A stretch of 64,000 nucleotides of DNA from Alphaproteobacteria bacterium (GTDB lineage Bacteria; Pseudomonadota; Alphaproteobacteria; Rhizobiales; Hyphomicrobiaceae). The stretch covers positions 10,089 to 74,088 of the forward strand of contig JAHZKP010000039.1 in the NCBI GenBank assembly GCA_022600345.1. Reading direction: 5' to 3'. Shown piece after piece: positions 20,317 to 24,170 of this stretch (position 1 is its first letter; every line of letters starts with the position of its first letter). A program made the translations under genes and the position numbers. The notes beneath the pieces are model-generated. The model was not told the DNA's origin, did no database searches, and worked only from the letters and a program-made list of their open reading frames with translations.

Positions 20317-21786
20317 ATGGCTATTACCGCAACCTCCAGCGACACAATATTTGCGCTGTCCAGTGCTCCGGGCCGGTCAGGAGTCGCGGTTGTGCGGGTG
20401 TCGGGCCGGGCTGCGGGAATGGCGGTCAAAGCGGTTTGTGGCGCATTACCCCGACCAAGGGTCGCCTCGTTGCGCCGACTGTTAAATCCGCGAGATGGCC
20501 AGATGATCGATCGCGGCCTGGTGTTGTGGTTTCCCGGGCCGGGGAGCTTTACCGGCGAGGACCTGGCGGAATTGCAAATTCACGGCGGGCGGGCGGTGGT
20601 TGCGGCGTTGCTTGATGCTCTTTCCAGGATCGAAGGCTGCCGGATGGCGGAGCCAGGTGAATTTGCCATGCGGGCTTTTCACAATGGCCGCATTGATTTC
20701 ACAGAAGCCGAAGGTCTTGCCGACCTGATCGATGCGGAGACGGAAGCCCAGCGCGTCCAGGCCTTGCGGCAGGCAGAGGGATCGTTCTCGCAGGTGACGG
20801 AGCGGTGGCGGTCTGAGTTGGTCGAGGCGATGAGCCTGGTTGAGGCAGCAATCGACTTTTCCGATGAGGGGGATGTCTCGGATTCGGCGGTGGCGCTGGC
20901 TGAAGAGCAGGTGAGGAGGCTTTACGACGAGATCGGGCAACATCTGCAGGATGGTCATCGCGGTGAGATCCTGCGCGAAGGGTTTCAGGTGGTGCTGACG
21001 GGTGCGCCGAATGTCGGCAAGTCGAGCCTGTTGAATGCTCTGGCCAGGAGGGATGTGGCAATCGTTTCATCTGAAGCCGGGACGACGCGGGACATCATCG
21101 AGGTGCGTCTTGATCTGGAGGGGTTGCCCGTTGTGGTGTCAGATACGGCGGGGTTGCGAGAGGCTGAAGGAGAAGTTGAACAGGAAGGCATCCGCCGGAC
21201 GATGGCGCGAACCGACCGGGCGGATCTGGTGGTTTGGGTGCTGGACGGGGCGGCGGGCCATGACGAAGCTGCACCAGTGGAGATGACCGGAGTTGCGCTT
21301 GTCGTGGTCAACAAGTGCGATCTGTTGGGCAATACGCAAAGTCGTCATCCCGGCGGAGGCCAGGATCCAGACACGCTGGAACGAAACACGCCACGTCCCG
21401 ATGTCGTGCATGCCACTGAGGTTTGCTTGGGTTCCCGCCTTCGATTTCGCGCGTCTTCGACACGACGCAGGAATGACGTTGATTTGCCAATTGAGGTTTC
21501 GGCCAAAACCGGCGAAGGGCTGAGTGAGTTGACCGCGCGGATTGCTGGGATCGCGAGGGAACGAATTGGCGGTGGCGAGGACGGCGTCATTACCCAGGCG
21601 CGTCATCGCGGGCATCTGGAAACGTGTCAGCGCCATCTGGAAGCCTTCATCGATACGGTGATTGAAGTAGAGCTTCGGGCTGAAGAGTTGAGGCTGGCTG
21701 CAGATGCGTTGGGACGAATATCGGGACGGGTCGATCCGGAGGACGTGTTGGATCAAGTCTTCGGGCGCTTCTGTATCGGTAAGTAG
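20317..21786 (+). CDS. mnmE: tRNA modification GTPase MnmE with an in-frame palindromic insertion
   Basis: DTIFALSSAPGRSGVAVVRVSG, GAPNVGKSS, GTTRD, DTAG, NKCD, SAK and FCIGK motifs; about 45 extra residues between NKCD and SAK. Confidence 0.96.
   Translation: MAITATSSDTIFALSSAPGRSGVAVVRVSGRAAGMAVKAVCGALPRPRVASLRRLLNPRDGQMIDRGLVLWFPGPGSFTGEDLAELQIHGGRAVVAALLDALSRIEGCRMAEPGEFAMRAFHNGRIDFTEAEGLADLIDAETEAQRVQALRQAEGSFSQVTERWRSELVEAMSLVEAAIDFSDEGDVSDSAVALAEEQVRRLYDEIGQHLQDGHRGEILREGFQVVLTGAPNVGKSSLLNALARRDVAIVSSEAGTTRDIIEVRLDLEGLPVVVSDTAGLREAEGEVEQEGIRRTMARTDRADLVVWVLDGAAGHDEAAPVEMTGVALVVVNKCDLLGNTQSRHPGGGQDPDTLERNTPRPDVVHATEVCLGSRLRFRASSTRRRNDVDLPIEVSAKTGEGLSELTARIAGIARERIGGGEDGVITQARHRGHLETCQRHLEAFIDTVIEVELRAEELRLAADALGRISGRVDPEDVLDQVFGRFCIGK
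21343..21478. mobile_element. RPE-like palindromic miniature element inserted in frame in mnmE
   Basis: Left end CGTCATCCCGGCGGAGGCCAGGATCCA; right end TGGGTTCCCGCCTTC...CGCAGGAATGACG. The ends are inverted complements (11/13 at the termini) and match the GTCATTCC..GCGAAGGCGGGAACCCA class of palindromic MITEs. Confidence 0.8.
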
Positions 21787-22091
21787 TAGTGTTCTGCGTG
21801 GATCGATATACCAGTGTTCCGACCCTGACAGTTGGTTCCCGACCGTCAGCCCAGAACACCAGTAGGAGCACCAACCCGTCTGCATGCCTAAGAAAATGCG
21901 ATAGCATTTGTCCGGGGTCCCCAAGCTGTGCAGCAGGTAGGTGCTGATCCTTCAGAACTGCAAGATCCCGGATAGCTCATTTGCTTTGCTGCATAAGCTT
22001 CCGGGAACGCAGAGGGATTGGAGTAGTGAAGAACTCTCCCGGCAAGTTTTGAGCCCCAGAGTTCTACTTGTATTCGTTCGGTTTGAGCCAA

Positions 22092-22107
22092 TGTTTCACG
22101 TGAATCA
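22092..22107. promoter_or_regulatory. parS site
   Basis: TGTTTCACGTGAATCA, one mismatch to consensus. Confidence 0.88.
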
Positions 22108-22156
22108 ATTAGAGGAACATAGCTTTCAGCGCTTTGGGACTTTGCGGCCACTTGAA

Positions 22157-22172
22157 TGTTTCACGTGAATCA
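22157..22172. promoter_or_regulatory. parS site
   Basis: TGTTTCACGTGAATCA, second identical copy 65 bp downstream. Confidence 0.88.
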
Positions 22173-22301
22173 TTGGTCAAGGATGCGGCGCGGTTTTCAT
22201 TGTGGAAAGAGGTTGACGGCCGCCACGTGGCGTGCGGGGTGAGATTGGAAGCGTGGATTGGGCAGCCTTGTGCGAACGGCGATGAGTGGTAAGACGGTTC
22301 G

Positions 22302-24170
22302 ATGAAATACGCATTCGACGTCATTGTTGTGGGAGGCGGGCACGCAGGCGTAGAGGCTGCTGCGGCGGCAGCCCGCATGGGCGCTGCAACAGCGCTGGTC
22401 ACGCATCGCTTCGATACCATCGGTGAGATGTCGTGCAATCCGGCTATTGGCGGGCTTGGCAAAGGGCATCTGGTTCGTGAAATCGATGCGCTTGATGGAT
22501 TGATGGGCCGGGTGGCCGATGTGGCGGGAATTCAGTTCCGGCTGCTGAACCGCTCGAAGGGTCCGGCTGTGCAAGGGCCGCGTTCGCAGGCTGACCGGAA
22601 GCTTTACCGGGAAGCGATGCAGGCTGAGATCCGGGTACAGGACAACCTGGTCGTTGTCGAGGGTGGGGTCGAAGACCTTGTGGTTGAGAATGGCCGGGTG
22701 GTTGGTGTCACGACCGGGGATGGCCGTGAGCTACGTTCTGGCGCGGTGGTGCTGACGACGGGCACGTTCCTCAACGGCCTCATTCACATGGGTGACAAGC
22801 GTATTCCGGCCGGCCGGGCAGGAGAGGCTCCGGCGCTGAAGATCTCCGAGCGGCTTTATGGTCTGGGACTTCCCATGGGGCGGCTGAAGACGGGGACACC
22901 GGCTCGTTTGGTTTCGTCCTTGATTGACTGGGCGAGCCTTGAGATGCAGGCCGCCGACGATCCGCCTGTGCCGTTCTCGTTCCTGACCGACAAGATCACG
23001 ACGCCGCAGATTTCGTGCGGCATCACAAAGACGACGGCTGAAACACATGACATCATTCGGGAGAACCTATCGCGGGCACCGATGTATTCGGGCGCGATCC
23101 AGAGCGTTGGTCCGCGCTATTGTCCGTCGATCGAGGACAAGGTCGTCAGGTTCGCAGACCGGGACTCGCACCAGGTGTTCCTGGAGCCGGAGGGACTCGA
23201 CGATGAGTTGGTCTATCCCAACGGGGTGTCGACCTCGCTGCCTGCCGATGTGCAGGAGGCTTTCCTGAAGACGATGCCGGGTCTGGGAAATGTTGAGATC
23301 CGCCGTCCGGGCTATGCGATTGAATACGACTATGTCGATCCGCGTGCGCTTCATCCAACGCTGGAAGTAAAGTCGCTGCGGGGGCTGTTTCTTGCCGGGC
23401 AGATCAATGGCACGACGGGATATGAGGAAGCCGGCGCGCAAGGATTGCTGGCGGGTCTTAACGCGGCGCTTGAAGCAAGCGGCGGCGAGCGAGACGTTAT
23501 CGTCTCAAGGGCGGATGGATATCTGGGCGTGATGATCGACGACCTGGTGACGCGCGGTGTCTCAGAGCCATACCGGATGTTTACTTCGCGTGCCGAGTTC
23601 CGCTTGAAGCTGCGGGCGGACAACGCCGACCAGCGGTTGACGCCGGTCGGCTTGGCGGCTGGTTGCGTTGGATCGCGCCGGGCCCAGGCGTTTGCTGCCA
23701 AGACCGAAGCACTTTGCGAGGGGCGGGCGCTGCTGGAAGGCCTGAAGCTGACACCCAATGAAGCTGAACGCCACGGTATCAAGCTGAACAAGGACGGCCG
23801 GCGCAGGTCGGCGTTCGACTTGTTGTCGCTGGCGGAAATTTCGCTCGATCAGTTGAAGCCGATTTGGCCGGAGCTTTCCGGGCTTGATACGGCCATTGCC
23901 AATCAGCTTGCGGTTGACGCGCGGTATTCGGCGTACGTCAGGCGGCAGGATGAGGATGTTGCGGCGATGAGGCGTGATGCGGAGGTTCGCATTCCCGCGG
24001 ACTTCGAATACTCAGGTATCGCTGGGCTGTCGAATGAGATCCGGCAAAAACTGGAAGCAGGCCGCCCGGTGTCATTGGCCCAGGCTCAAAGGATCGATGG
24101 GATGACGCCGGCCGCCTTGATGTTGCTTGCCGCGCATCTAAAGAAGCATCGGCGACGGGCGTCGGCTTAG
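22302..24170 (+). CDS. mnmG: tRNA uridine-5-carboxymethylaminomethyl modification enzyme MnmG
   Basis: [30 protein letters not shown] and [12 protein letters not shown] motifs. Confidence 0.97.

Follow-up and report, generated by a model that had tools for sequence, protein, structure and literature searches.

How a palindromic stretch of DNA comes to be read as protein inside a conserved tRNA modification GTPase is the question raised by the mnmE gene of a Filomicrobium genome (G000), which lies 21 kb into the 64-kb window analysed here, the window being the whole stretch of 64,000 nucleotides under study. A sequence-only reading of this stretch had described the segment as a palindromic mobile element of about 135 bp, similar to the Rickettsia palindromic elements (RPEs) and translated in frame within the GTPase domain. 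Our analysis makes it very probable that the insert is instead a pair of inverted, CGTC-tagged REP hairpins, NTS-like and of the Ssn-associated kind, which stand in frame in the connector between the G4 and G5 motifs of MnmE.

An in-frame segment between the G4 and G5 motifs

The 489-aa mnmE ORF matches the Pfam families TrmE_N (2.7e-36), MMR_HSR1 (6.6e-23) and MnmE_helical (1.7e-49), and is the single mnmE copy in an assembly that is 99.9% complete, in which other GTPase matches are weak (E ~1e-10). None of the G motifs is disrupted, nor is the C-terminal CIGK; K333 and D335 of G4 and S395 of G5 are invariant among 45 MnmE orthologues. As had been reported from the sequence, segment 21343-21478 sits in frame between NKCD and SAK, upstream of an undamaged C-terminal FCIGK, and the peptide then quoted for it is the correct one. 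The resulting G4-G5 spacing of 59 aa is indeed unusual, being mostly 11-21 aa in those of about 100 Hyphomicrobiales orthologues with recognisable motifs; the roughly 45 extra residues are rich in Arg and Gly.

Downstream of mnmE lies an ORF that, by recognition of its GidA-type sequence, we take to be mnmG. This ORF adjoins mnmE in relatives too, as a conserved neighbour. It was not found 3' of mnmE in the related genomes G006, G009, G010 and G013, in a search of up to 1.5 kb, as far as each contig extended; that of G013 stops inside mnmE, which limits the downstream search there. The spacer between mnmE and the putative mnmG in the window (21787-22301, 515 bp) is long for such a gene pair.

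Features of the mnmE locus (window positions) and of the GIY-YIG gene (positions on contig C133)
Feature	Position	Strand	Remarks
mnmE (tRNA modification GTPase)	20317..21786	+	489-aa ORF, Pfam matches
G4 motif NKCD	21310..21321	+	residues 332-335, read from sequence
Left hairpin unit, whole	21343..21369	+	fits the CGTC-1 architecture of PMC3733652
CGTC tag of left unit	21343-21346	+	
CCA tail of left unit	21367-21369	+	
Inner tail of left arm	21370..21382	+	GACACGCTGGAAC, comparable to the family's ATGCAAGCCTCAAGGAAC
Spacer segment	21389..21409	+	CGCCACGTCCCGATGTCGTGC, codes PRPDV; matches the native G4-G5 loop of G011
Right hairpin unit, inverted	21428..21478	-	85-87% identity to other copies
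CGTC tag of right unit	21475-21478	-	read as GACG
G5 motif SAK	21499..21507	+	residues 395-397, read from sequence
Putative mnmG (gidA), MnmE partner enzyme	22302..24170	+	622-aa ORF
GIY-YIG gene	C133:67027-67371		115 aa, single domain; PF01541, 57.7 bits

The inverted ends attributed to the segment are real, consisting of 13-nt arms (21343-21355, CGTCATCCCGGCG; 21466-21478, CGCAGGAATGACG) that are 85% complementary. Between its CGTC tag and CCA tail, the left unit folds as ATCCCGGC / loop GGAG / GCCAGGAT, with an 8-bp stem that starts from AT and contains one mismatch. The likeness between the inner tail of the left arm and the family sequence given in the table was judged by eye against left-end sequences, the family alignment not spanning that part of other copies. 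The right unit has the stem ATTCCTGC/GCGGGAA and a CCA tail; it is degenerate and its loop is expanded by a nested palindrome (21441-21460), a variant that is also present in other copies across the genome. Folded as RNA, the whole insert (166 nt) does no better than shuffled sequences (z -1.16), which indicates that the palindrome has decayed.

At the protein level, an AlphaFold prediction (45 sequences, mean pLDDT 83.4) assigns pLDDT values below 50 and no secondary structure to residues 346-387 and 342-344, with the strands that precede NKCD and SAK and the remainder of the protein modelled confidently. The loop foreseen by the sequence-only reading is thus predicted to be disordered within an otherwise well-folded MnmE, and its predicted peptides include DPDTLER and NTPRPDVVHATEVCLGSR. 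In alignments with experimentally determined MnmE structures from E. coli (9hip) and T. maritima (1xzp), the match runs to residue 338 and resumes at residue 392, about 18 residues of 1xzp taking the place of 54 in the Filomicrobium protein. From these models we infer that the added loop would be tolerated, disordered and exposed on the surface; the insert is presumably translated and the enzyme functional.

A family of CGTC-tagged hairpins and a neighbouring nuclease

BLASTN searches with the right arm returned matches on other contigs at E 4.7e-14 and 2e-12, the arm being 85-87% identical over 55-65 nt to copies on contigs C31 and C133, and both arms, without the middle, recur on many contigs. 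Moreover, an HMM of the family, made from copies elsewhere in the genome, matches the mnmE insert with a genome-wide E of 6.8e-06; together with the arm matches, this indicates that the segment is more than a chance palindrome. Iterated nhmmer searching identified 81 loci in G000 (14.1 kb in total, 44 of them at least 190 bp long), so that the further copies looked for in the genome do exist and constitute a genome-wide palindromic repeat family. A search for hairpins preceded by CGTCAT gave 187 matches, compared to 27 in shuffled sequence, with an ATCCA-type tail on about 90 of them. The units form 22 clean inverted pairs measuring 159-162 bp from tag to tag, usually of one type A and one type B hairpin, and conserved sequence reaches about 20 bp or more past the tags. 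Many loci are composite elements of about 210 bp, amplified only in G000; what its relatives share is limited to the 30-55-bp hairpin units.

Of the 81 loci, 23 are found no more than 300 bp from a contig end, against an expectation of 2.3%; the repeats therefore break the assembly, the copy count is a lower bound, and the family is a main cause of the fragmentation of the G000 assembly into 156 contigs. The sequence-only reading had held that the process that creates protein from such DNA is active now. This does not follow from the mnmE copy, given its divergence and the inserts that related species have in the same loop; the only hint of current or recent activity comes from other copies, the most similar of which are 95-96% identical.

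When genic and intergenic copies are counted, the mnmE copy is the only family locus of G000 inside a Pfam-recognisable gene, where 345 and 101 codons of real protein flank it within the ORF. Four other ORFs that span family loci lack a Pfam match and look spurious, and were rejected as further in-frame copies. A solo CGTC unit at C97:3440-3515 stands in frame among codons 13-37 when an alginate lyase gene (PF05426) is read as its longest ORF, and a signal-peptide-like stretch follows it with no alternative start codon between the two; whether this unit is translated depends on the start codon.

In architecture, the units of G000 resemble the CGTC-1 REPs of Di Nocera, De Gregorio and Rocco (2013, BMC Genomics 14:522, PMC3733652), which carry an unpaired CGTC tetranucleotide at one end of a hairpin made of an 8-bp stem that starts from A-T and T-A pairs, a 4-nt loop and a CCA-type tail. 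Tag, stem, loop and tail are all shared by the G000 units, the right mnmE unit being degenerate. According to the same study, CGTC-tagged REPs are found chiefly in Alphaproteobacteria, mostly as inverted dimers, mostly between genes and with no RAYT attached, and their class includes the Neisseria dRS3/NTS repeats and RPE-4 and RPE-6 of Rickettsia. The G000 family likewise has many copies, inverted dimers, a mostly intergenic location and no RAYT; it differs in that many of its units are built into the 210-bp composite amplified only in this genome.

The comparison with RPEs made by the sequence-only reading holds by way of this class, since RPE-4 and RPE-6 are placed in it (PMC3733652); the relation is one of class. 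As summarised in that paper from Ogata et al. (2000), RPEs lie in frame in conserved, presumably functional proteins, and the mnmE insert is like them in being a palindromic repeat in frame in a conserved protein gene, to whose product it would add a surface peptide. RPE hosts are obligate intracellular bacteria, in contrast to the free-living, marine- or soil-type alphaproteobacterium studied here, and Rickettsia conorii has many genic copies where G000 has one clear one. Extension to a free-living lineage, offered earlier as an inference, had been published already: intragenic, in-frame CGTC REPs, often dimers, are known from several free-living species (PMC3733652). Neither Filomicrobium nor MnmE is named in the accessible portions of that paper and its supplements. 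The principle that selfish hairpin DNA enters protein genes is thus on record from Rickettsia and from other free-living bacteria; the present locus is a further, well-documented example, in which a free-living alphaproteobacterium has had such DNA turned into part of a conserved GTPase.

Two other classes of repeat were compared. Inverted REP doublets also make up the REPINs, populations of non-autonomous elements described together with RAYTs (Bertels and Rainey 2011, PMC3116915), a likeness that extends to the doublets of G000. However, REPINs carry a GTAG tag where the G000 units carry CGTC, and a profile search for PF01797 (Y1/RAYT), which gave matches in control genomes, found none in G000; the missing Y1 transposase and the CGTC tag rule out a RAYT/REPIN model. 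Seen as possible MITEs, the composites are 73-96% alike over their full length with no target-site duplication evident at the repeats, and the mnmE copy has a unique middle and is without the outer part of the TIR.

A predicted nuclease gene of the GIY-YIG (Ssn) type is associated with the same hairpins. In G000, type-B hairpins flank the GIY-YIG gene on contig C133, at 66920(+), 67432(-) and 67541(+). This gene, together with an inverted hairpin, lies between the copies of an 88-bp direct repeat that itself contains a hairpin, an arrangement that recalls a cassette bearing a long duplication (C133:66918-67630). Among homologues of the gene in 24 related genomes, a CGTC hairpin lies within 200 bp in 23 of 30 loci, with hairpins on both sides in eight of the 30; within that distance the hairpins reach a density of 3.3 per kb, compared with 0.18 per kb beyond it and 0.11 per kb in control loci. 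A nuclease encoded by DUF559 genes was considered and set aside, neither of the two such genes in G000 being flanked by family units.

Flanking of GIY-YIG genes by hairpins is not new, having been published in 2025 for the Ssn nucleases and their NTS motif (Nat Commun 2025, PMC11893778). In the accessible portions of that paper, the motif accompanies 71% of homologues, the nuclease cleaves DNA single strands adjacent to the hairpin, and multiplication of the hairpins is put forward as a hypothesis; its main text, to the same extent, contains no discussion of copies inside genes. Compared with what is described there, the CGTCAT-stem-loop-stem-ATCCA units of G000 are close to the Neisseria NTS CGTCATTCCCGCGMAVGCGGGAATCYRG, and the G000 gene is likewise a small single-domain GIY-YIG gene with hairpins on both sides. 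The difference is that the SRM string published there, HGTCWYN(0-2)YYVSBRHN(0-5)WNVSBRGN(0-2)RNCYNB, fails on Filomicrobium units: it matches neither strand of 21301-21520 and occurs 33 times in G000 against 62 times in shuffled sequence, with three matches overlapping CGTC units, and was dropped as a counter of copies. The link to Ssn consequently rests on architecture and on the flanking of the gene. No mobilisation step has been demonstrated for the CGTC class, and spread of the hairpins may depend on an Ssn-type nuclease or on another enzyme. With NTS-like hairpins, the published targets of the Ssn single-strand nuclease, now found inside a housekeeping gene, those in mnmE offer a concrete substrate for asking whether Ssn-type nucleases cut or restrict coding DNA.

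Origin and history of the insert

Units of the family occupy the same MnmE loop in four related Filomicrobium species, whose loops are matched by a family HMM built from G000 copies. The loop contains a compact dimer in G010 (spacing 53 aa), a dimer in G006 (47 aa), a dimer with further tandem-repeat expansion in G013 (~86 aa) and the left unit only in G009 (28 aa). These four species form a 100/100 clade in both the MnmE tree and a two-gene tree, so that one ancestral insertion is common to them. Full, half, flipped and expanded forms in sister species make up a comparative series that shows how the segment ages within a gene. The G013 loop (L010, G013:C23 2500-2854) has an extra upstream segment with the short tandem repeat HDFTKCGTEFRKCGPE, and its contig stops shortly after the loop. 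A 'GGND' in the loops of G005 and G003 is at most a putative relic of the right arm, the family HMM giving no match in those loops.

Whether the insert of G000 descends from the same event is less clear-cut. A single ancient insertion in the ancestor of G000 and the four relatives, followed by decay, indels and possibly inversion in situ, is a real possibility to which we nevertheless give somewhat less than even weight, the alternative being independent hits in two lineages. In keeping with a common origin, G000, G010, G006 and G013 share one reading frame of the right arm, giving S-R-L-R..N-D, and the points before SAK at which the arm ends differ by no more than two codons; moreover, AU tests on two trees do not reject the grouping of all five insert-bearing species (p 0.155 and 0.186). 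Against this, the best trees need two insertion events for G000 and the four relatives, and only 5% of bootstrap trees unite the five as a clade. The unit with the expanded loop is the 3' member of the pair in G000 and the 5' member in G006, the left arms of G000 and the relatives are in different reading frames, and the 85-87% identity of the G000 right arm to other G000 copies is closer than expected for an insert older than the radiation of these species.

A second matter is whether the segment arrived whole, and here the earlier picture of a palindromic mobile element stands in part: the segment belongs to a repeat family, as claimed, but it is probably not one mobile element of 135 bp. 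Transposition as a single MITE-like palindrome, a ready-made dimer with a spacer of its own, would fit the fixed size of the inverted pairs that make up most of the family, the alignment of the family HMM across the entire mnmE copy, and the presence of compact dimers at the same place in G010 and G006. We nonetheless regard it as doubtful, though by no means far-fetched. The spacer is identical at 18 of 21 nt, and in the same frame, to the loop of the insert-free relative G011, a match reached by none of 3000 shuffles; at least part of the supposed element is thus original mnmE sequence, which weakens the single-element picture. In addition, a BLASTN search of G000 gave no second match to the central part of the insert, and the outer ~20 bp common to the 210-bp composites are missing from the mnmE copy.

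A pair of inverted CGTC hairpins, the reading that we prefer, would have come about as follows. The repeat would be selfish, or tolerated by the host, and as a rule intergenic; hairpins of this kind would have landed in a loop dispensable for the folding of MnmE, the two units perhaps separately, with a stretch of the native loop left between them. The length of the insert would have kept the frame and its GC-rich sequence would have been free of stops, so that it would be read as some 45 additional, disordered Arg- and Gly-rich residues in an intact enzyme.

That the loop has been co-opted, with selection maintaining an Arg-rich disordered segment that now helps in regulation or in the binding of tRNA or MnmG, appears very unlikely. 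The insert does persist in at least five species with its frame kept by compensating indels, has grown to 86 aa in G013, and is read in hydrophilic, Arg-rich frames in all five. But conservation of its sequence among species is poor, half of it is gone from G009 and the segment is predicted to be disordered; Arg-rich frames, moreover, follow directly from CGN-rich hairpins, and the requirement for the C-terminal domain accounts for the keeping of the frame.

Lastly, a pseudogene or a repeat misjoined into mnmE by the assembler is scarcely credible, even in an assembly so often interrupted at these repeats, given that the copy lies on an 88-kb contig, 21 kb into the 64-kb window, and has a unique middle, that the frame, the G motifs and the C-terminal CIGK are kept in the only mnmE of a nearly complete genome, and that a similar insert is found in four independent assemblies of related species.

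The connector as a site of recurrent insertion

Unrelated sequences have entered the same connector elsewhere in the order. In Hyphomicrobium sp. P-RSF-NP-07 (L072), a near-perfect 120-bp palindrome that is unrelated to the CGTC family lies in frame at this place (peptide SPLGERVGVRG...LSPRGEG; fold -117.7 kcal/mol) and recurs elsewhere in that genome, in at least three long and about 20 partial copies; other Hyphomicrobiales carry long, non-palindromic inserts in the MnmE G4-G5 connector. Tolerance of the loop explains these recurrent inserts. That the connector is, beyond mere tolerance, a preferred landing site for hairpin repeats is a speculation that we think unlikely to be right. It is prompted by the occurrence of CGTC hairpins in both G000 and the clade of four relatives and of the unrelated palindrome in L072, by the opposite sides taken by the expanded-loop unit in G000 and G006, and by the manner in which the G000 hairpins bracket a native loop segment, as if placed singly in turn. 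If true, it would imply a targeting rule for CGTC repeats, such as a single-stranded DNA structure or the context of Ssn cut sites.

Inserts of other composition were seen in the connector as well. Three Hyphomicrobiaceae MAG loci (L004, L035 and L037) have Gly-rich loop inserts of 46-50 aa that are common to two or three close genomes, and four loci from Pseudolabrys MAGs (L081, L083, L085 and L100) have AT-rich inserts of 39-54 aa, rich in Asn, Glu and Ser and not obviously palindromic.
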